Of a stretch of 64,000 nt of DNA, positions 6,526 to 64,000 are shown piece by piece (position 1 is the stretch's first letter; each line of letters starts with the position of its first letter). A program made the position numbers and the translations under genes. The notes below the pieces were generated by a model. The model was not told the DNA's origin, made no database searches, and saw only the letters and a program-made list of their open reading frames with translations. This stretch comes from a virus. The DNA is taken from the IMG/VR virus record IMGVR_UViG_3300045988_141143. One strand, given 5' to 3'.

Positions 6526-9168
6526 TTAGTAATTATTGTTGCTCATTATTCCTACGTCAAGATTACCGAAAGTGGTTTCTGTCTGTATCGAATAGATTCT
6601 TCCATACCCTGCGAGTGTCATGTACTTAGCGCCGAAGGTGGCTATCTGTACATAGAAGGATGGCCTTGTCACGCTCTGCCCCTTCTTGATGGCAGGCACC
6701 AGCTTTGTGTTGTCGTAGGCCGTGGCATCCCCAGTAAGGAACACGCCATCCGCAAGATTTGTCAGCGCACCATTCTTCACCATTGTGCGGCTCGTAAAAG
6801 TCCTTCCGTCGGCTGCACTCGCAAGGTCGTAAGTACCCAATCCGTTTGCCGAGTCGGCTACTATCTTTCCGTTCACTCTTGGCGCTGAGTAACGATACAG
6901 GGTTGTCGTTTTGCCCGTCGCACCCTTAACGAAAAGAATGTAGTTGTTATCCTTCGTTGCCGTGTACCACGACTTGGTGGTATCAACCCACGGTAGGTCT
7001 ACATTCTCTCCGAGCGGAGTCGTCAGTCCTGCGTCCTCTGCTTTGATATATTGCGCAGAAGTTATCTTCGCGTCGGTCTTGCTTAGCGAGGCGATACCAG
7101 CAGGGCCGAGGTCATAGAGAAAGTTTCCGTTGTCGTCGTAGTACGACAGCACGGCCTGTCCCGAACTGTTCAGACCGAAGCGGATGTTTGCAGTTCCTGC
7201 CTTGCCGTAGATATTGATAAGGCCATCGGCTATCCTTACCATCTGTCCGTTGTGTCCTTGGGATGTAAGCATCTGCGCCAGTATCAGAGCCGCATTGATG
7301 GCTCCGTCTTTAAAGAGAGCGGCTGTCGTTGTCTGACCGGTAGAGAGCGTGTTCTCCACCTTGATTTTCTCGCCATACAGAGTTACTCCTCTCGACGTAA
7401 TCTCAAGTCCTGCCGCCTTTGCTGTGGCTCTGTCGATGAGGTCGGTCTTCCGTTCTGTATAATCAGTAAGTTGTGCGCCTTCCTCCAGTTTCGGCTTTGT
7501 CACCCAAGCCTCAGTATCGCCTGGAACACGTATCAGCACCTTGTCTGGGATTACCTCTGCTCCCTCGCCAGTATAGTCCTCTATTCGCCAATGCACCCAG
7601 TACCGCTTATAGGTCGAGGTGAGTGCGAGCTGTGCGTATCCGTCAGCCCAGCCGTCCGTATATTCGTTTCCTTCGCAGGTTTCTGTATATACATTTGCAT
7701 GAACGCTGTCTCCATAGAGAAAGACGTTGATGTTTCCGCTGCCCTTGGCAACGAAGGAGAACACATAGTCCTGATTCTTTACTATTCTCGCCTGCCCAGA
7801 AAGGGTAGCTGTTGTTGGAAATTTATATTGCAAGACTTCTGTGTACTGAGACTCTGCCGAGTTGTTTTTGTTGTACAATATACCGTAGCAGCCTTCGTAT
7901 TTTCCAAACATAATCAGTCCACTGGCAAGCTGGAGATTGCTTTTGTCAGACGATCTGGTCAGTGTCATCGTGTCCTCCATAAGGTTTCCTCCCACATAGT
8001 CGTAGTCCGTTTCCGCAGGAGTCCAGCCTGTGTACTCGCTTCCTTCTTCAAGCATTGGCATACATATCCATCCGTTGCCCGAGGCAGTATAACCAAAGGT
8101 TCCGTCCACGGTTATGCCATTGTAGACAAAGATATTCACCTCGATAAACTCTGCGTTGCTCGTATTGAAGGTGTAGTTCACCTGCCTCCACTGATTCACC
8201 TCGTTCTCCTTTGTCAGCCCGTACATGTTACCCGAGGTGGCAGTAATTCTGTCCCCTCTATCGCCATTCAGCGCAGCCATTTTGAACACCTCCGATATAA
8301 CCTGTAAGTCCTTCGTGTCGCACTTTATCCATGCCGAGAAAGTGTAGTCTGTATTCTTCTTCACAGCGATGCCGTTGACGGCCTGTCCCCAGAAAAGACC
8401 CTTGTACTGAGGCGTTCCGTTACCCGTCACCGAGAAGCGGATGGCATTATGGCCGTTTACGCCCTGTGTTATCGTAGGCTGGAAGATGCCGTTCATATAA
8501 TATATATCACCCTTCCTCGTCAGTGACGTATCTCGCAGTAGGTTATGCCGTCCTTGCTGGCTCTGAGTCACACTGAGAGTAATCTCCTTTGCTGTCTGCT
8601 TGATAGTAGATGTGTAGGCTTTGAGAACGGTAGGATTGCTTCCTTTGAGGTCGTTCTCCAATGCCTTAAATTGCGACTGATACTGCTTTGCCGTAGCCTT
8701 TACACTACCCATATACTTCGACACGTTCACCGAGAATGGAACTTGCGCAAAATAGAGAACACCAGTGTAAACAAATTGTGCGACCGCATAGCCTGATGTT
8801 GCAGAAACCTGTCCTTGATTTACCCCGTCAACAATTACATCGTTCTTTGCAATATTACTGCCTGATACAGATACTTCGATATATCCATCCTTCTGTGTTG
8901 CACTACATTTGCAATTTACACACAAATCATCCCTTGAGTTAATATTGCTGCATTCATTAGAGATATTCAGGTTACCCTTCATTATCTTTACCTTCGCAAC
9001 CTTTGATATGCTAACAGGTACAATTCCACTATCATCTGTGTCAAAAACGAGCGGAGCGTCTTCGACAATAATAGAAACGGCATCCTTGCCAGGCTTGCCT
9101 TGCGGGCCTGGCGCACCATCCTTTATCGCCGCTATCGTTATCTGGCCCCTCGCCAATAATACTGCCAT
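6526..9168 (-). CDS. Tail fibre / receptor-binding protein (880 aa)
   Basis: N-terminus 'MAVLLARGQITIAAIKDGAPGPQGKPGKDA' carries a collagen-like GxxGxxG segment and an anchor motif shared with ORF 9214..10257. Long Ser/Thr/Asn/Gly-rich beta-rich body. Confidence 0.6.
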   Translation of the reverse strand: MAVLLARGQITIAAIKDGAPGPQGKPGKDAVSIIVEDAPLVFDTDDSGIVPVSISKVAKVKIMKGNLNISNECSNINSRDDLCVNCKCSATQKDGYIEVSVSGSNIAKNDVIVDGVNQGQVSATSGYAVAQFVYTGVLYFAQVPFSVNVSKYMGSVKATAKQYQSQFKALENDLKGSNPTVLKAYTSTIKQTAKEITLSVTQSQQGRHNLLRDTSLTRKGDIYYMNGIFQPTITQGVNGHNAIRFSVTGNGTPQYKGLFWGQAVNGIAVKKNTDYTFSAWIKCDTKDLQVISEVFKMAALNGDRGDRITATSGNMYGLTKENEVNQWRQVNYTFNTSNAEFIEVNIFVYNGITVDGTFGYTASGNGWICMPMLEEGSEYTGWTPAETDYDYVGGNLMEDTMTLTRSSDKSNLQLASGLIMFGKYEGCYGILYNKNNSAESQYTEVLQYKFPTTATLSGQARIVKNQDYVFSFVAKGSGNINVFLYGDSVHANVYTETCEGNEYTDGWADGYAQLALTSTYKRYWVHWRIEDYTGEGAEVIPDKVLIRVPGDTEAWVTKPKLEEGAQLTDYTERKTDLIDRATAKAAGLEITSRGVTLYGEKIKVENTLSTGQTTTAALFKDGAINAALILAQMLTSQGHNGQMVRIADGLINIYGKAGTANIRFGLNSSGQAVLSYYDDNGNFLYDLGPAGIASLSKTDAKITSAQYIKAEDAGLTTPLGENVDLPWVDTTKSWYTATKDNNYILFVKGATGKTTTLYRYSAPRVNGKIVADSANGLGTYDLASAADGRTFTSRTMVKNGALTNLADGVFLTGDATAYDNTKLVPAIKKGQSVTRPSFYVQIATFGAKYMTLAGYGRIYSIQTETTFGNLDVGIMSNNNY

Positions 9169-9213
9169 ACTCTTTCATTTTTTTTATTAATAAAAAATAA
9201 GGGTGAGGTGCCC

Positions 9214-10257
9214 TTATTTAGACACCTCACAAGTAAACGTGCCTCTCACTGCCACGTCAGCGTTGGACACCGTGACGTAAGGCTTGCTCGAAGCATTCAC
9301 CGCACTTGATGTACCGTTCCAGTTCGTGGCTACACCGCTGGCATTGTACTTCGTCCATTTGTAGATGTAGTTCGAGGCATGGTTGCTGTCTGCCTTCACC
9401 GCTGCACCATCCTCCACTACCTTGCCGTCTTTCCAGAGTCGGGCGTAAAGCTCCGTCGACTGCGAACCGTTCACTATCTTGTCGCCGGTCAGCGAATACA
9501 CCTCCACCACGTACGGGTCGCTCGCATCGAAGAACGTGATGATAGCGCTGGCCGTATCAGCACCGTCCTTCACCGTACAGCGGAAAGTCTGGAAGTTAAG
9601 CACGTCATTGGCGCTCACGTTCAGAGTGCTCACGCCGCCCGAAGTGCTCACGTTGCCCGAAGCCACGGCGTCCCATGTTCCTGCACTGATATTCAGCACC
9701 TCCCAAGTCATTGATGTCATGGTGGTGTCCTGCACGTTGCCACGGAAGAACTTGGCTATAGCACGCAGCTTATTGCTGTTGTTGGTCGAGTCGAACGTGT
9801 TGCCGTCGGGAGTCTCAATCTGCACCGTCTGAAGCGCACCGCCACTCTTAGCCAGCGAAATGGTCTTGTAGCCGATACACGTTGTCGTAGCCTTAGTTTC
9901 GGGGTCAGTATATTTGCACGACCACTCGATGTTCTTCACGCTGCCGTTCTTGTCGATGTTGCTGGCGAGGTTAAGCTGATACGACTTGCCGCTCACAGGA
10001 GTGGCAGCCACACCATCCAACTTCCACGACCATCCCGTACAAGCCGAGGTCGGAGCCTGGTCTGTAGCACTGCCCGTCACATATACACGGGCTGTTATCA
10101 CGTTTGGTTCACTCGACGAGTAGTTCGGAGTGTACACACCCGTGTCGGGGGTGTAAATCTGAGTCTCGCCCTTAGAGCATTGTGTAAAACACTGAACGGC
10201 CTTGCCGTCATTGAGGTCAACGATAGTAATCTGACCATTAGCTAATACTTTTGCCAT
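9214..10257 (-). CDS. Second tail fibre-like protein (347 aa) sharing the N-terminal anchor motif
   Basis: 'MAKVLANGQITIVDLNDGKA' versus 'MAVLLARGQITIAAIKDGAP' of the 880-aa fibre. Beta-rich, Ig-like composition. Confidence 0.5.
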   Translation of the reverse strand: MAKVLANGQITIVDLNDGKAVQCFTQCSKGETQIYTPDTGVYTPNYSSSEPNVITARVYVTGSATDQAPTSACTGWSWKLDGVAATPVSGKSYQLNLASNIDKNGSVKNIEWSCKYTDPETKATTTCIGYKTISLAKSGGALQTVQIETPDGNTFDSTNNSNKLRAIAKFFRGNVQDTTMTSMTWEVLNISAGTWDAVASGNVSTSGGVSTLNVSANDVLNFQTFRCTVKDGADTASAIITFFDASDPYVVEVYSLTGDKIVNGSQSTELYARLWKDGKVVEDGAAVKADSNHASNYIYKWTKYNASGVATNWNGTSSAVNASSKPYVTVSNADVAVRGTFTCEVSK

Positions 10258-60503: not shown

Positions 60504-60965
60504 TTACTCTTGAAGATACTCGCCGTATAGTTTCCACTCCTTATCATGGATGTTGCCGACAACCTCAAAGCTCTTCATCTTCTCTTGCAAGAGATCATCT
60601 GGGATGCCGTCTTCAAGACCACCTACGTCAGAGTAGGGATTTTTTACCGTAACGATACCAAAGCAAGCTTTCTTCTCACAATAATACACTACGGCATAGT
60701 AGTCGTCGCAAGTATTGTATTCGATTCTGCTATACGGATATTCGTTCGATCGCAATACGTCGCCTTCATAAATCTCCTTGCCGTTCTTGTCGGTGAAGCC
60801 AGTGAACTGGCATACAGTAGAGGGGTCAACAGCAAACGTAAAAACAGGCCGTCCATCACTGACTGGATTATTTTTTACGAGAGTCTGGTCACCCACATGG
60901 GACAAATCGCCGTAATTCCACTTCCCGTCCTCTATACTCTTAGCCTTAAACTTAATTGTTCTCAT
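60504..60965 (-). CDS. YopX-family phage protein
   Basis: 'MRTIKFKAKSIEDGKW', 'GFTDKNGKEIYEGDVL', 'EVVGNIHDKEW' match the YopX consensus blocks. Confidence 0.65.
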   Translation of the reverse strand: MRTIKFKAKSIEDGKWNYGDLSHVGDQTLVKNNPVSDGRPVFTFAVDPSTVCQFTGFTDKNGKEIYEGDVLRSNEYPYSRIEYNTCDDYYAVVYYCEKKACFGIVTVKNPYSDVGGLEDGIPDDLLQEKMKSFEVVGNIHDKEWKLYGEYLQE

Positions 60966-61006
60966 AATTCTCTATTTTAAATTGTTACTCATATTCTATC
61001 AATACA
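60963..61006. promoter_or_regulatory. Conserved ~40-nt upstream/junction element (copy 2)
   Basis: See copy 1. Includes the ...LIEYE* stop of a 19-aa mini-ORF and the YopX ATG. Confidence 0.5.
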
Positions 61007-61125
61007 ATGGTGTGCTGTCCGTGCTCGTCGTAGAGTCCTGCCATCCGTCGTAGCGGGCGGACAATGCCGTGGAATACCCCCGACGAGGGCAAAGCTGGGA
61101 TGTGCGTAACACGAAAGGAATTTGG

Positions 61126-61296
61126 TTACACATAATCGGGATTGAAAAATATGCCATTTACACCTTCAATATCGATGGTGTTTCTGTTACAGTCAAAATC
61201 AGCATCACAAAACTCGTCGCCATTGACTGTTACTTCCAATTCGCCATGTTCTTTACGCAAAAGTTCAAGGCGGTTTATAAGTTCGCTTATATTCAT
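61126..61296 (-). CDS. Small ORF (56 aa), translationally coupled to an upstream TRD-like mini-ORF
   Basis: 'MNISELINRLELLRKEHGELEVTVNGDEFCDADFDCNRNTIDIEGVNGIFFNPDYV'. Below the ORF-table cutoff; coding-like composition. Confidence 0.25.
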   Translation of the reverse strand: MNISELINRLELLRKEHGELEVTVNGDEFCDADFDCNRNTIDIEGVNGIFFNPDYV

Positions 61297-61306
61297 ATTA
61301 TTTTCT

Positions 61307-62100
61307 TTACAAATATTCTATCAATGCCATATTATCCTTGCCTACTGACGTAAGGGTGTTGGTTGTACTTCCCCCGTTTATCTCCATTCGCTGACAGAAG
61401 CGTCCGTTGGAGGGATGCTTGCGGTCGGACGGATTGTCGGGGTCACGGCCTCGGAAGGCTGCTATGCGAAAGTGTAGCATAGGAGGTTGTCTTTTGTTAC
61501 TGTTGTTATCGAATTGCTCCACGCCCACGGACTTGGGCGGTGATACTTGTCGCTGTATTTGCACCCTCCCCGGTCGCCATGTTCACGACGGAAGGTTTTG
61601 GCTTCCTCGGTGCGGTAGTGGACGAGGACGGAACGATTAATCATACTCTATCAATATTTTCGGTTTATCCACGTCGTGACCTTTACCTCCCCCGGCTATG
61701 CACAAGGCTATGCCGCGCGGCGACACGATGATGCCGTTCTGCGAGGGGCTGTAGGAGCCGAGGATGATGGGGCGAGGGTTGTTATTCATATATTACAATT
61801 ACGCCAGTGGCTTTGAAATTTGCTCCTTGGGTTGAAACGTCAAGAACATCGTATGCACCCTTCTTGAAATAATTGGCTTTGATAGTGCGTGATGTGCCAT
61901 CGGATTCGGTGTTGAAAGGGAATGTCATAATTCTACTGCTACAAAGAACACGTCGCTGCAATCGGTGCGCGACATGATAGTTACTGCTATACCGTGAAAT
62001 GCTCCGTTGAAGCGTTCTGCGCTGAACATCGAGGCAGGGCAGGTGAGCAAACTACCCCCCAATCATATCAGCTATGATACGGATTACACGGTCGGGTGGA
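61307..62100 (-). pseudogene. Array of out-of-frame C5-methyltransferase target-recognition-domain (TRD)-like fragments/mini-ORFs
   Basis: 'FRGRDPDNPSDRKHPSNGRFCQRMEINGGSTTNTLTSVGKDNMALIEYL', 'RREHGDRGGCKYSDKYHRPSPWAWSNSITTVTKDNLL', 'SPRGIALCIAGGGKGHDVDKPKILIEYD' and 'ESDGTSRTIKANYFKKGAY...GVIVIYE' sit in different frames separated by stops. Each resembles the conserved TRD blocks of multispecific m5C-MTases. Confidence 0.4.
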
Positions 62101-62103
62101 TTA

Positions 62104-63306
62104 TCAGTTCTCATTCTTCCTCTCCATATTCTCCTTGAACATTTCTCCGAAACCATCCCAATAATGAGCGTCCATCCATTCGGGCGAGGATAAAAACTGC
62201 TCATACATCATTGTCGCAGGTATCGTCCGTAGGTATTTCTCGCAAGCCTTAACGTCTTTGTCCCACAAATCCATCCGCTCCATTTCTATCTGAAAATACG
62301 TCTTGAGGAACATTGCCGCCTCATGTGTCGGTGGCAGGTCGAATTGAAGGAATAAGGCATTGTCGGAGTCGTTTGCCTTGAGGAACTTGCTCACGGCATC
62401 GTCCTTGAGGAAATAGCGGTCAGACACTTCCTCTTCGAGCACGTCTTCCAATCGGGTAAGCAGCTCGAAAGGTTCTGGGAACTGATAGTCGAATGCCACG
62501 TCTCGGCGCATGGAGAGGCAGAACACACGGTCGCGGTTTTGTGGCACACCGTAGTTCTTGGCGTTGAGTCGCGTCCAACGGCTCACATAGCCGAGCGACG
62601 AGAGTTTGTCGAGCCACTTCTGAAAGTCTGGCAAGAACTTCTGGCTTACCAGTGCCGCCACGTTCTCCTGCAAGAGATACTTCGGGCGAAGCACCTCCAC
62701 AGCATCCGCCACACGCCAAAGCAGTGCGCTTCGGGTGTCGCTGCCCTCCTGCAAGCCCATTTGCTTGCCCGCCTGACTGATGTCCTGGCAAGGCGAGGAA
62801 TAGGTGAAGAGGTCTACTTCGCGGCCTTCGAGCGAGCTTTCCACCTCGTGCCAGTCAATCTTGGTGATGTCGCCCAGGGCGCAGTCGGCAAACTGAGGGA
62901 AGACGAGGTTGTGCATCTGACAGGCGTATTTGTCGATGTCGCTCCATCCTATACATGTCCATCGGAAGTCGGGATGCCACTCGCGGAGCACATCGGCTGC
63001 CATAAGCTGCGAGTCGTAGCCGAAGAACGTGGTAAGGAATATCTTCTCCTCGTTCTTGTTGGCTGCGGTGGGCGGCAGGGCGGGTAATGTGTCTTCGAGG
63101 TCGTCGAAGAGCGAGAGTTGCTTTTGCTTACGAGGTTTGGGCGTAGGATAGAAAAGTTGCTCGTAGATGTGGGCCAACACGTCCACCACGATGCTGTTTC
63201 CGGCTTGCTTGTACTGCTGTGAGGCAGATATAGCCATGTCTTCGGGCTTGCCCTTGCCTTTCCAGTCGGGCAGACGTTCGGCTGCTTGAGCATTGCTGCT
63301 CTGCAT
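62104..63306 (-). CDS. C5-cytosine DNA methyltransferase core with non-canonical (circularly permuted) motif order
   Basis: Motif X 'QYKQAGNSIVVDVL' lies near the N-terminus. Then 'GWSDIDKYACQMHNLVFPQ...GDITKI' (II/III), 'SSPCQDIS' (IV), 'LLQENV' (VI), 'QNRDRVF' (VIII) and a TRD-start-like 'LEDVLEEEVSDRYFLKDDAVSKFLK'. Motif I is not clearly recognisable. The ORF table lists 62104..63348 from a GTG. Confidence 0.55.
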   Translation of the reverse strand: MQSSNAQAAERLPDWKGKGKPEDMAISASQQYKQAGNSIVVDVLAHIYEQLFYPTPKPRKQKQLSLFDDLEDTLPALPPTAANKNEEKIFLTTFFGYDSQLMAADVLREWHPDFRWTCIGWSDIDKYACQMHNLVFPQFADCALGDITKIDWHEVESSLEGREVDLFTYSSPCQDISQAGKQMGLQEGSDTRSALLWRVADAVEVLRPKYLLQENVAALVSQKFLPDFQKWLDKLSSLGYVSRWTRLNAKNYGVPQNRDRVFCLSMRRDVAFDYQFPEPFELLTRLEDVLEEEVSDRYFLKDDAVSKFLKANDSDNALFLQFDLPPTHEAAMFLKTYFQIEMERMDLWDKDVKACEKYLRTIPATMMYEQFLSSPEWMDAHYWDGFGEMFKENMERKNEN

Positions 63307-63314
63307 CGTGCCGA

Positions 63315-63419
63315 TTACATTGTCACGAACGCCATCAGACGAAAACACTCCTTGGGTGTGAGCTTGCGGATGGCATAGCTCTTGATGGTGCGGTCGGTGA
63401 AATTGAGTTTTGTAATCAT
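63315..63419 (-). CDS. 34-aa mini-ORF carrying a C5-MTase motif-IX-like peptide, out of frame with the MTase core
   Basis: 'MITKLNFTDRTIKSYAIRKLTPKECFRLMAFVTM*'. 'RKLTPKECFRLM(G)F' is the motif-IX consensus. The core continues in the +1 frame a few nt downstream. Confidence 0.4.
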   Translation of the reverse strand: MITKLNFTDRTIKSYAIRKLTPKECFRLMAFVTM

Positions 63420-63436
63420 ATTGTTGCTGTTATTAT

Positions 63437-63584
63437 TCGTATTCTATTAAAATTCCTGGAGCATGATTATCTGCCTTGACGCATCTATTTATTCCTTCTA
63501 ACGGAGGTCTTTTATAGTCAGGCGAAACATTCCAATAAATGCTCGATATTGCATGAGCGTGATAGTCTATTGTGATGTTATTCA
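63437..63584 (-). CDS. 49-aa mini-ORF ending in ...ILIEYE, translationally coupled
   Basis: 'MNNITIDYHAHAISSIYWNVSPDYKRPPLEGINRCVKADNHAPGILIEYE*'. Its start overlaps the stop of the upstream mini-ORF within 'GAATATGAATAA'. Confidence 0.3.
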
Positions 63585-63709
63585 TATTCTTCAATCAAAA
63601 ATACATTTTGCTGCCACGAGTTGATTGTTACGGTCGGGCAAACGTCTGTACCTAATCGACCTCCATCGTTATTGCCACGAGGATATTGGTAGAAGTCAAG
63701 ATTAATCAT
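63578..63709 (-). CDS. 43-aa mini-ORF with C5-MTase 'TLTA-block'-like sequence
   Basis: 'MINLDFYQYPRGNNDGGRLGTDVCPTVTINSWQQNVFLIEEYE*' resembles '..G.SPTLTA....G..LI.E' preceding motif IX in m5C-MTases. Confidence 0.35.
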   Translation of the reverse strand: MINLDFYQYPRGNNDGGRLGTDVCPTVTINSWQQNVFLIEEYE

Positions 63710-63718
63710 ATTCTTCAA

Positions 63719-63976
63719 TCAAAAGAACGCTTCAGATTGCAAGTCGCCAATATAACAATAACGCTGCACTTCGTATTCGCTGATAAACATTCGCCAATTC
63801 TGTTCGTCATGATCGAAATGTTCATGTACGAAGCATGTACCACCGAGTCGCCAACAGAGAAGCGATCCTATGCAATGCGGTTGTTCTCTGGCTGGATGCC
63901 ATAACTGAACGATATTACGATATTCGGCTCTTTTATCCGTTTCTACATCGTCAGACAAGGAATCCTTAAAGCTCAC
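63719..63976 (-). CDS. Hypothetical protein (85 aa)
   Basis: Intact ORF. Its stop lies 7 nt before the next mini-ORF start. Confidence 0.3.
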   Translation of the reverse strand: MSFKDSLSDDVETDKRAEYRNIVQLWHPAREQPHCIGSLLCWRLGGTCFVHEHFDHDEQNWRMFISEYEVQRYCYIGDLQSEAFF

Positions 63977-64000
63977 GCCTTTTTTATCGGAATCGACAAA

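Follow-up and report, generated by a model that had tools for sequence, protein, structure and literature searches.

Classic multispecific phage C5-methyltransferases are those of the Bacillus phages SPR, phi3T, rho11s and H2. Naturally split C5-methyltransferases include M.AquI (alpha/beta) and M.EcoHK31I, and to our knowledge no C5-methylase in three pieces has been described. Phase variation of specificity is found in Type I hsdS shufflons and Type III mod repeat tracts. The pieces of split C5-methyltransferases are translated separately and the cut lies in the variable region (PMC5944983); circularly permuted enzymes are M.BssHII, M.Alw26I, M2.Eco31I, M.Esp3I and M2.BsaI (PMC5944983). A split or a permutation in the variable region is compatible with activity in both natural and engineered C5-methylases, as seen for M.AquI, M.BssHII, M.SssI and M.MpeI fragments (PMC5944983, PMC3404938). 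Hypermutable polyG tracts are present in Campylobacter phage receptor-binding genes (Sorensen et al. 2021, as cited in PMC12823448).

Organization of the methylase locus

The DNA analyzed is a stretch of 64,000 nts from a virus (the window). Its minus strand carries, at 60985..63709, a C5-methyltransferase core (PF00145) with short ORFs on either side, every gene being on this strand. The features, with TRD standing for target-recognition domain, are the following:

63578..63709, minus strand: mini-ORF A, family T04, 43 aa, MINLDFYQYPRGNNDGGRLGTDVCPTVTINSWQQNVFLIEEYE; intact, start ATG within junction TTGATTGAAGAATATGATTAA
63433..63585, minus strand: mini-ORF B, family T06, 50 aa, GILIEYE end; intact, 8-nt overlap with A (TATGAATAA)
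62104..63419, minus strand: circularly permuted, TRD-less C5-methyltransferase core, from PF00145, intact relatives and PDB alignment
61925..62114, minus strand: mini-ORF D0, family T26/T16, 63 aa if intact, VAVEL end; OFF, start overlaps the core stop
61782..61928, minus strand: mini-ORF D1, family T02, 48 aa, ...SRTIKANYFKKG...GVIVIYE; intact, ATGA overlap with D0
61637..61789, minus strand: mini-ORF D2, family T01, 50 aa, ...GIALCIAGGGKGHDVDKPKILIEYD; intact, G5 (in-frame) tract at 61689-61693
61462..61644, minus strand: mini-ORF D3, family T21, 60 aa, ...HYRTEEAKTFRREHGDRGG...SNSITTVTKDNLLCYTFA; intact
61307..61480, minus strand: mini-ORF D4, family T09/T15, 57 aa, ...AAFRGRDPDNPSDR...TNTLTSVGKDNMALIEYL; intact, 19-nt overlap with D3
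61126..61296, minus strand: 56-aa ORF within the array; not TRD-like, ends in DYV and a stop
60985..61133, minus strand: T03 mini-ORF, 49 aa if intact, M.NQIPFV...YDGWAGLYDEHGQHTIVLIEYE; frameshifted near 61041

The short ORFs at 63578..63709, 63433..63585, 61782..61928, 61637..61789, 61307..61480 and 60985..61092 end in h-I-E-Y-[E/D/L] or V-I-Y-E, and the other C-termini are VAVEL (61925..62062) and YTFA (61462..61644). With at most 2 mismatches, the junction TTGATAGAATATGA is found 8 times in the window for 0.54 expected, a number reached in none of 100 shuffles; four of these matches are inside the methylase locus, and longer variants TTGATTGAAGAATATGAnTAA are present at 63580 and 63705. 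Across 75 related loci, stop and start overlap by 8 nts (TATGAnTAA) at 175 junctions and by ATGA at 50, other junctions have spacers of 1-60 nts, and the consensus is T.aT.aTaGAATATGAaTAA. The excess of TTGATAGAATATGA and the 8-nt overlaps of the relatives confirm the earlier note, in which short ORFs around a methyltransferase core were described as linked through a conserved junction where stop and start overlap. The 56-aa ORF overlaps the next module by the same 8-nt type (TATGTGTAA); its counterpart is absent from the same position in the related locus L002.

The junction Tyr is encoded by TAT in 407 of 460 cases, compared to a genome-wide TAT share of 55%, and the embedded ATG opens an ORF of at least 30 codons in 348 cases. 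TAC junctions are all without overlap (53/53) and have a separate ATG downstream; mini-ORF B of the window uses TAC for this Tyr and closes with a double stop, 13 nts ahead of the core ATG. As the embedded ATG is selectively kept, these data indicate that the mini-ORFs are separately initiated genes.

A circularly permuted catalytic core

Profile positions 23-217 of Pfam PF00145 align with the 414-aa ORF of the core (62104..63348; E=1.3e-45), in which motif X (QYKQAGNSIVVDV) stands at the start, ahead of motifs I, IV (PCQ), VI (ENV) and VIII (QNRDR). Motif I reads FFGYDS in the window and FSGYDS in relatives. Motif IX (IRKLTPKECFRLM; PF00145 positions 269-289, E=0.01) lies in a 34-aa ORF (63315..63419), whose frame differs from that of the 414-aa ORF because of a 1-nt deletion at 63333 (ATGGGC to ATGGC, G2 vs G3 in relatives, mapped against L002). 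This deletion is private to the window and its site is not a repeat. Motif IX and the core form a single full-length alignment in 67 of 81 loci and are frameshifted in 4 loci only, and more than 100 close relatives carry an intact permuted core of 436-442 aa with the N-terminus MITKLNFTDRTIKSYAIRKLTPKECFRLMGVRDNV. The order is IX, X, a linker with QLSLFDD, I-VIII, a hinge and a C-terminal helical bundle. The circular permutation proposed earlier is therefore real in the intact relatives, where IX-X precede I-VIII, whereas the idea that motif IX is a separate mini-subunit has to be abandoned. A designed split between motifs IX and X was likewise rejected, the break being the deletion at 63333.

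In the alignment to PDB, core residues 198-347 correspond to M.MpeI 122-274 and residues 15-50 to M.MpeI 333-368, and the TRD stretch of M.MpeI (~58 aa) has no counterpart in the core. This alignment indicates that the core is without a TRD; the proposed docking gap is placed by it only, because the AlphaFold model of the core is poor (pLDDT 46). The C-terminal ~80 residues are confidently predicted to form a helical bundle, and this region exists in at least 4 sequence variants among relatives. This variable bundle could itself be one specificity element.

Homology of the mini-ORFs to TRD modules

Concatenated mini-ORFs compared by tblastn with 50,697 phage records matched solely annotated C5-methylase genes. 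In Dulem virus 39, whose enzyme is a single chain with several TRDs, one HSP covers D2, D3 and D4 (E=2e-5); in Dulem virus 40, one covers A and B within the TRD-IX-X subunit (E=3e-3). A phmmer search with D4 against 1.84e9 representatives gave 291 matches at E<=1e-3, consisting of stand-alone proteins of 49-110 aa and of TRD positions of long multi-TRD methylases; D4 shares 56% identity with the TRD of the Streptococcus phage Javan179 methylase (E=8e-6), and the profile of the D4 family gives 1.9e-13 with the methylase of Dulem virus 39. The profiles of A (T04) and B (T06) match the beta subunit of Dulem virus 40 at residues 163-196 (iE=8e-4 at Z=2.5e6) and 199-227 (iE=9e-3), respectively, and that of D1 (T02) matches residues 2-29 weakly (iE=0.04). 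Against PDB, the T07 profile matches only the TRDs of M.HhaI (239-257) and M.MpeI, with E about 1. The T-L/V loop of the VIII-IX insert is present in the mini-ORFs and missing from the core tail. Combined, these results bear out the TRD-like, multispecific-methylase nature first suggested for the mini-ORFs, and indicate homology to single TRD modules within multispecific phage methylases of the single-chain type. The profile comparison was positive with family profiles (2e-13, 8e-4, 9e-3), whereas generic profile libraries did not recognise the mini-ORFs; measurable similarity to known TRDs is seen in only ~5 of ~25 families.

Comparison with related phage genomes revealed that the array is conserved: the mini-ORFs, of ~25 families, are found in 75 related phage loci, the median phage carrying 9 intact copies, and they accompany the core in 75/75 loci. 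The modules are also present in more distant, GC-richer relatives, and the architecture is retained between cores only ~67-70% identical and across differing GC content. Purifying selection is apparent in frame, with pN/pS of 0.12-0.37 in 14 families (0.28 for A, 0.37 for B, 0.13 for D2, which is found in 59 loci, and 0.21 for D3, broad family F2), compared to at least 0.83 in other frames. These comparisons indicate that a TRD-less core with a mini-TRD array is a widespread family trait, common to many relatives of this gut phage and not noticed in the earlier note. A decayed permuted multispecific methylase, as also envisaged in the earlier note, would fit the frameshifted core, D0 and T03 of the window but not the conserved and selected copies of the relatives.

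Poly-G tracts in the modules

Runs of at least six G occur at ~0.7-0.9 per kb in the arrays vs 0.05-0.12 per kb elsewhere; the tracts of the mini-ORFs are on the coding strand only, with a 10-20 fold local enrichment. In large phage genes, GGG accounts for 4% of Gly codons and GGGGGN for 0/42 Gly-Gly pairs; the mini-ORFs, contrary to this codon bias, use GGGGGN in 237/628 pairs. Single-chain Dulem enzymes have no G run longer than 4. Among relatives, 109 of 786 module copies are frameshifted, the site being a poly-G tract in 92 of the 109, and a change of tract length alone restores full length in 85. The frame is open with G5, G8 or G11 and closed with G6, G7, G9 or G10. Tract lengths, taken as assembled from sequences that are all metagenome assemblies, span 5 to 11, including G6 vs G11. 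Over 5819 bp, loci L042 and L043 differ in nothing but the lengths of three tracts, and near-identical independent contigs share out-of-frame states (L034/L035 and L014/L015).

In the window, the D0 tract (62055-62060) is G6 vs G8 in the intact L002 copy, its length being 6-9 nts in relatives. D2, for which G5 and G8 are in frame and G6, G7 and G10 out of frame, is open, and D4 carries a G5 tract at 61371-61375. The T03 module has a G5 tract at 61077-61081 and a frameshift near 61041 (TGGGCAGG to TGGCAGG); this and the core deletion at 63333, the two non-tract frameshifts, fall at short G3 runs. The window copy is probably inactive, or mis-assembled at core 63333, at the D0 G6 tract and at T03 ~61041. 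The tracts, which had escaped the earlier note, appear to constitute an on/off feature of individual modules, and switching may be reversible.

A proposed modular methylase with exchangeable specificities

The reading that we prefer, and consider moderately probable from these sequence comparisons, is that of a modular multispecific methylase: TRDs made as individual, translationally coupled subunits would serve, in trans, a core that has none, and each of them would be phase-variable alone. The locus would be a single minus-strand operon for a modular, multispecific DNA (cytosine-5) methyltransferase. Tandem TRDs, located between VIII and IX in single-chain enzymes, would have been excised at module boundaries to become proteins of their own (43-63 aa), and the X-to-I linker of the core may go back to the leader at the N-terminus of a second copy of the gene. 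Ribosomes would move from module to module through the overlapping stop/start (TATGAnTAA or ATGA). We infer assembly in trans as follows: a mini-TRD would dock non-covalently between the C-terminal hinge of the core and its N-terminal pre-motif-IX segment, rebuilding the small domain and conferring one DNA specificity. Most module families have a coding-strand tract, located in their Gly-Gly(-Gly) loop, where slippage could toggle a single module within the population, possibly reversibly, leaving the core and the other modules untouched and generating mixed methylation patterns among the phages. With ~9 modules of one specificity each, many motifs would be methylated and many host type II restriction enzymes therefore escaped. 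If this is true, the selective reason for mixed methylation may plausibly be a hedge against methylation-dependent restriction.

It is very unlikely that the mini-ORFs are functionless debris, left after frameshifts and stops had broken up a once single-chain multispecific methylase. As decay would predict, the modules have homologs in the tandem TRDs of single-chain enzymes and frameshifts are seen in the window (three) and in relatives (109/786), but the low pN/pS is restricted to the coding frame, hundreds of junctions break at the same module boundary with the same stop/start overlap, the architecture is kept between divergent cores of differing GC content, and 85 of the 109 frameshifted copies are intact otherwise. 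Less probable again is recoding, in which a +1 shift (or hop) at TAT-GAn-TAA junctions would join the TRDs of an array, and possibly the core, into a single polypeptide. The following ORF is always +1 across the 8-nt overlap, such a shift-prone stop context is formally possible and single-chain homologs exist; the embedded ATG is nevertheless under selection, TAC junctions have their own downstream ATG, and the 50 ATGA junctions, the 1-60 nt spacers and the double stop with a 13-nt spacer between module B and the core argue against shifting. Moreover, TRDs flank the core on both sides, so that no single chain gives the canonical order for all of them, and up to ten serial shifts would result in a negligible yield.

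Differences in poly-G length may be homopolymer sequencing or assembly errors, in which case the modules would be constitutive and the split-TRD reading could still hold. We consider this unlikely: although all sequences are metagenome assemblies, differences are mostly of 1-2 nts and the two other frameshifts of the window are at G3 runs, the tracts themselves are genomic, enriched on the coding strand against the GGG bias, they vary as widely as G6 vs G11, the same out-of-frame states recur in independent contigs, and frameshifts do not abound in the long genes of these contigs. Finally, the core might be a complete single-specificity enzyme recognising DNA by its C-terminal helical bundle, the minis acting, for example, on host restriction or modification enzymes as decoys or inhibitors. 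The confident prediction and variability of this bundle are in keeping with such a role; yet known TRDs are VIII-IX inserts with the T-L/V loop that the minis have and the tail does not, the closest relatives of the minis are at the TRD position inside methylases, and the minis are translationally chained to the core and accompany it in all 75 loci, which makes this explanation very improbable.

Comparison with known systems

Like the multispecific phage enzymes, represented in this analysis by the 527-aa enzyme of Dulem virus 39 and by P0130, the locus has several TRD modules per catalytic core, and the modules are homologous and partly collinear (D2-D3-D4). The hydrophobic-hydrophobic-Glu strand at the module end is VLEP/VVEP in those enzymes and LIEY in the present modules. 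They carry all TRDs on one polypeptide between VIII and IX and have no poly-G tracts, whereas here each TRD has its own gene, tracts are present and the core is permuted and TRD-less. Split C5-methyltransferases, with Dulem virus 40 alpha+beta and L093 as examples in this analysis, resemble it in that pieces cut in the variable region are translated separately, and the C-terminus of Dulem virus 40 beta (…QQKSRQLSLFDDL) matches the linker between X and I in the core described here. Enzymes of the M.AquI type are in two pieces with TRDs covalently attached to IX-X; in contrast, the TRD alone would be separate here, in ~9 alternative versions. Permuted C5-methyltransferases share IX-X ahead of I-VIII and a permutation point in the variable region (PMC5944983), but keep the TRD in the chain and belong to bacterial R-M systems, whereas the core described here is a phage core adjoining TRD mini-genes. 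As in phase-variable systems, the exchangeable unit would hold specificity, homopolymer length would set the on/off state, and close genomes differ mainly at tracts. Those systems involve bacterial adenine methylases or phage tail proteins; here the tracts lie in many parallel TRD genes of a putative phage m5C enzyme, and switching would therefore be combinatorial.

The methyltransferase core is permuted and carries no target-recognition domain

The features of the locus to which the analysis refers are as follows.

60504..60965, minus strand: YopX-domain gene
61126..61296, minus strand: 56-aa ORF (MNISELINRLELLRKEHGELEVTVNGDEF...) inside the module array
62055-62060, minus strand: poly-G tract of module D0
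62104..63348, minus strand: 414-aa ORF of the core
62104..62370, minus strand: C-terminal helical bundle of the core (residues about 356-436)
63315..63419, minus strand: 34-aa ORF with motif IX
63719..64000, minus strand, and 8816-9588 of the parent scaffold (L001): two 123-aa ORFs

The core is a member of the DNA (cytosine-5) methyltransferase family by profile match and by its catalytic motifs. The 414-aa ORF matched Pfam PF00145 with E=1.3e-45 (156.7 bits, cut-off 22), over profile positions 23-217 only, and contains PCQ (motif IV), ENV (VI), QNRDR (VIII; QxRxR) and GNS as well as AdoMet motifs I and X; motif I reads FFGYDS in the window and FSGYDS in relatives. The 34-aa ORF corresponds to motif IX (profile positions 269-289, E=0.01). 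No target-recognition domain (TRD) was found between VIII and IX in the same polypeptide, profile positions 217-269 being unmatched. Alignment to PDB structures placed core residues 198-347 on M.MpeI 122-274 and core residues 15-50 on M.MpeI 333-368, and found no counterpart in the core for the TRD of M.MpeI (residues 275-332, ~58 residues).

A search of 5.8e9 proteins returned more than 7000 homologs of the core at E<=1e-3, and identity is at least 84% for the closest 120, whose lengths are 436-451 aa save one entry of 412 aa. Close relatives start MITKLNFTDRTIKSYAIRKLTPKECFRLMGVRDNVIG, so that motif IX is normally an in-frame fusion to motif X; their N-terminus reads MITKLNF...IRKLTPKECFRLMG (IX), then QYKQAGNSIVVDV (X), then a linker, then I-VIII. 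The order in the family is IX, X, a linker with QLSLFDD, I-VIII, a hinge (FDYQFPEP...YFLKDDAVSKFLKAN) and a helical tail. With IX and X N-terminal to I-VIII and the permutation point in the variable region, the core is circularly permuted in the manner of M.BssHII. No TRD was found at either of its ends, where 16 residues precede motif IX and a helical bundle without a T-L loop follows the hinge. An AlphaFold2 model built with 42 close homologs was poor (pLDDT 46) and confident only for the C-terminal helical bundle. Among close relatives this bundle has at least four versions with unrelated sequences, every one ending F..MFKENMERK; docking, dimerisation and specificity are candidate roles for it.

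The mini-ORFs are conserved, separately initiated genes

The short ORFs around the core end in LIEYE, LIEYD, LIEYL, VIYE or VAVEL, and eight TRD-like modules are present in the window. We used scripts to compare 80 IMG/VR loci with a core 67-97% identical. In these relatives about 25-30 families with members of 40-63 aa, and one further family of 105 aa, make up the small plus-strand ORFs beside the core; ends of the form h-(I/V)-E-(Y/L)-x are shared across families. Intact modules number 3-14 per phage (median 9). The array, left open earlier as either conserved or variable among related phages, is conserved in layout and loosely in module order but variable in content, some families lying upstream of the core in one phage and downstream in another. 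The same layout is found in two more distant, GC-richer relatives (L085, L086).

With up to two mismatches allowed, the window contains 8 copies of the junction TTGATAGAATATGA, where 0.54 would be expected; 4 of them are in the locus. At 175 junctions consecutive ORFs share 8 nt (TATGAnTAA), which puts the second in the +1 frame, and at 50 they overlap by ATGA. The junction tyrosine codon is TAT in 407/460 cases, compared to 55% TAT in the large genes of the phage, and the embedded ATG opens an ORF of at least 30 codons in 348 cases; at TAC junctions the overlap is absent in 53/53. For 14 families read in the annotated frame, pairwise pN/pS was 0.12-0.37; the two alternative frames gave values of at least 0.83, most of them above 1. 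Every module is bounded by an ATG and a stop codon of its own, and the modules do not stand in tandem in one polypeptide as they do in multispecific enzymes.

Other ORFs are interspersed with the modules. The 56-aa ORF is not TRD-like; it runs into the next module through an 8-nt overlap of the same kind and is missing at the corresponding place in the 98%-identical relative L002. The two 123-aa ORFs lie between upstream modules (T05, beyond the window end) and modules A and B. The second of them ends in junction DNA (TTGATTGAAGAATATGATTAA) in another reading frame, so that conservation of the junction is at the DNA level and not just in the peptide.

Similarity of the mini-ORFs to target-recognition domains

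The earlier note had read the mini-ORFs as similar to methylase TRDs. Generic profiles (Pfam, PHROGs, NCBIfam) gave no usable match for ten mini-ORFs and did not bear this out; since such broad profiles do not model TRDs, direct tblastn and phmmer were used, and these upheld the similarity for some families. By tblastn, the ten concatenated mini-ORFs matched six of 50,697 phage records, all within annotated C5-methylase genes. One HSP over D2, D3 and D4 (E=2e-5) lay in Dulem virus 39, whose methylase gene (527 aa, canonical order) has about five tandem TRDs ahead of motif IX. Another, over A and B (E=3e-3), lay in Dulem virus 40, whose enzyme is split in two: the alpha subunit has motifs I-VIII, and the beta subunit has many TRDs together with IX and X. 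The C-terminus of beta, ...QLSLFDDL, recurs as the linker of the present core. D4 shares 56% identity with a TRD of Streptococcus prophage methylases (E=8e-6), and phmmer of D4 against 1.84e9 representatives returned 291 matches at E<=1e-3, many of them stand-alone proteins of 49-110 aa and others among the tandem TRDs of long methylases (P0130, P0159, P0169). Two of the top matches from that search, P0126 and P0175, were discarded as compositional, being repetitive eukaryote-like proteins.

Family profiles run against the Dulem enzymes (Z=2.5e6) gave E-values of 1.9e-13 for T09 (D4), 8e-4 for T04 (A), 9e-3 for T06 (B), 0.04 for T02 (D1) and 0.16 for T07. Against the PDB, T07 touched only the TRDs of M.HhaI (ERIYSTRGIAITLSAYGGG, 239-257) and M.MpeI, with E about 1; the T01 (D2) profile gave only a spurious match. 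The C-terminal h-I-E-Y of the minis is the counterpart of the VLEP/VVEP strand that closes each module in single-chain enzymes. By homology to tandem TRDs, several distinct TRD modules accompany one catalytic core, as in multispecific enzymes. Direct and profile comparisons found no measurable similarity to a known TRD for most mini families, which are putative TRDs by their context and shared ends.

Poly-G tracts set the reading frame of the modules

Within 1.5 kb of the core on each side, the density of coding-strand runs of at least six G is about 0.7-0.9 per kb. In the core itself and in flanks farther out it is 0.05-0.12 per kb, and for C runs it is 0.04 per kb. In the window, 4/15 G/C runs of at least five fall in 61077-62055. 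Within the minis the tracts encode Gly-Gly(-Gly). GGG makes up 4% of glycine codons in 12 large window genes, where GGGGGN is found at 0/42 Gly-Gly pairs against 237/628 in the minis, and the longest G run in the single-chain Dulem enzymes is not above 4.

Frameshifts affect 109/786 module copies; 92 of the 109 break at a tract of at least five G, and 85 regain full length by a change of tract length alone. Lengths of 5, 8 and 11 are in frame and lengths of 6, 7, 9 and 10 out of frame. Two loci (L042, L043) are identical over 5819 bp save three tract lengths, and another pair (L051, L052) has G6 versus G11. The minis share two properties with simple-sequence-repeat contingency genes. Their ORFs contain homopolymer tracts in excess of what composition and codon usage predict, and the length of these tracts varies between near-identical genomes and sets the frame. 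The D0 tract is an out-of-frame G6 in the window and G8 in L002 (L002:5352); among relatives it ranges from G6 to G9, and other lineages have interrupted sequences in its place (AGGGGTGG, ATGGGTGG), which are unable to slip.

Homopolymers also occur inside the core of some sub-clades. In L072-L081 a G7 tract at residue 196 encodes VGGQ, and in L059, L062 and L065 a C7-8 tract in motif IX encodes TPPE, all three loci being frameshifted there. Such tracts are possible master switches.

The window copy is partly frameshifted

The core frame is interrupted in the window, where one G is lost at 63333 (ATGGGC to ATGGC) relative to L002 and to protein record P0001. D0 (tract G6) and the T03 module (about 61041) are also frameshifted, as is the T05 module just past 64000; the frames of A, B, D1, D2, D3 and D4 are intact. 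One change, GATGGGC to GATGGC, is seen at both the core break and the T03 break, with no long repeat there; this shared context could reflect a mutational or sequencing hotspot, or chance, and the two breaks may be real inactivation or assembly errors. The same truncated core product, of 400 aa, is recorded from five contigs, which may not be independent. Among 81 related loci the core is a single full-length HSP in 67 and frameshifted in 4, the window included; in most of the others it is intact with a divergent C-terminus.

These data bear on the two readings of the earlier note, a decayed permuted multispecific methylase or a split enzyme with exchangeable TRD and motif IX modules. Its description of a permuted core with an array of short ORFs sharing ends and junctions holds, given the PF00145 match and the excess of junctions. 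Decay applies to the window copy, with its frameshifted core, D0 and T03, but not to the relatives, in view of their intact modules and pN/pS. Separate modules are upheld for the TRDs by homology, own ATG and stop, and selection, but motif IX belongs to the core, being part of that single HSP in 67/81 loci. Stop-codon reassignment was rejected because the ORFs stand in different frames and none of the breaks is an in-frame stop, inteins or introns because motifs are absent and the modules too short, and an inversion shufflon because the junction repeats are direct, not inverted.

Phage setting

The window is part of a 102-kb metagenome scaffold (L001) and also encodes a tape-measure protein, a tail fibre and a head protease, and so belongs to a tailed phage. 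One scan found 137 IMG/VR loci with the core family, which is abundant in gut viromes; the mini-genes are mostly uncalled or labelled hypothetical. A genome scan for the host returned MAG bins only, two of Prevotella and several of Clostridia that are probably mis-binned; Prevotella is the likely host. At the DNA level, the sole match of the locus among 50,697 phage records was a YopX gene fragment in Dulem virus 39. YopX-domain genes lie on both sides of the methylase region (60504..60965 and L001:6237-6695), and a PAPS-reductase-family gene is found near the methylase in the distant relative L086 (1214-2329) and in Dulem virus 39 (L082:3888-4955).

A proposed mechanism and its origin

Taken together, the comparisons show that the locus holds a TRD-less permuted core, that it is chained to an array of mini-genes, variable in make-up, which are homologous to TRDs, under selection and initiated separately, and that tract-mediated frameshifts are specific to the mini-genes. 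The core and one TRD at a time would assemble in trans, giving multispecific methylation with switching of each module. This mechanism is plausible and the most economical one. The core would be permuted because the TRDs were cut free, its chain ends sitting exactly at the TRD insertion site; poly-G would be tolerated in the minis and absent from single-chain enzymes because a slip there would destroy the downstream motifs IX-X. We tentatively suggest, with slightly less than even confidence, a C5-methyltransferase built like a Type I system in miniature, in which the permuted TRD-less core takes any of ~25 kinds of free 45-60 aa TRD subunits in trans, a poly-G switch in each TRD gene allows up to 2^n methylation patterns per phage genotype, and the junction repeats let modules move between phages. 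The likely evolutionary route would start from a single-chain multispecific enzyme (Dulem virus 39 type) and pass through an alpha/beta split (Dulem virus 40 type) and fusion of the IX-X end to the leader and motifs I-VIII of the next copy to the separation of the TRDs into their own genes.

To our knowledge, no structure has shown how a single catalytic domain works with many TRDs in multispecific C5-methylases. If the mechanism is true, free TRD subunits would make this directly testable per 50-residue module and, as swappable DNA-recognition units, would form a ready toolkit for targeting m5C methylation. It would also represent a new counter-defence logic of phages, with methylation specificities independently on or off, by which a phage population would hedge between hosts cutting unmethylated and hosts cutting methylated sites.

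Comparison with known systems

We know of no documented C5-methylase with a free TRD subunit. In natural permuted C5-methylases such as M.BssHII the permutation point likewise lies in the variable region, and the TRD is kept (PMC5944983); the present core has the same IX-X-first order and permutation site, but the TRD is absent. Active split and permuted C5-methylases, whose fragments complement each other, are documented (PMC5944983, PMC3404938), and the gene anatomy here is compatible with an M.AquI-type split enzyme. Hypermutable poly-G tracts are known in receptor-binding genes of Campylobacter phages (Sorensen 2021, as cited in PMC12823448); our literature search found neither poly-G tracts in methylase TRDs nor the present core and mini-TRD architecture described.

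Other interrupted enzymes were seen among the comparison records. In the split methylase of Dulem virus 40 (L083, PP511379, 1699-3639), the leader peptide of a following copy, QLSLFDDL, forms the end of the beta subunit; this enzyme resembles an evolutionary intermediate on the way to the permuted core. In Streptococcus phage Javan179 (L084, 573-1851) a prophage multispecific methylase is annotated as two genes, the first ending ...GGAVIELIE*, and one more TRD, located between the two genes, is broken at an A-run. Here too a multi-TRD enzyme is interrupted, and the host group is an unrelated one. L093 was rejected as a distant permuted relative, being an ordinary two-piece split enzyme in canonical order. 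In multispecific phage enzymes the TRD modules stand in tandem in one chain, whereas here they are separate genes, and this arrangement is a new form of C5-methyltransferase organisation, widespread in gut phages.
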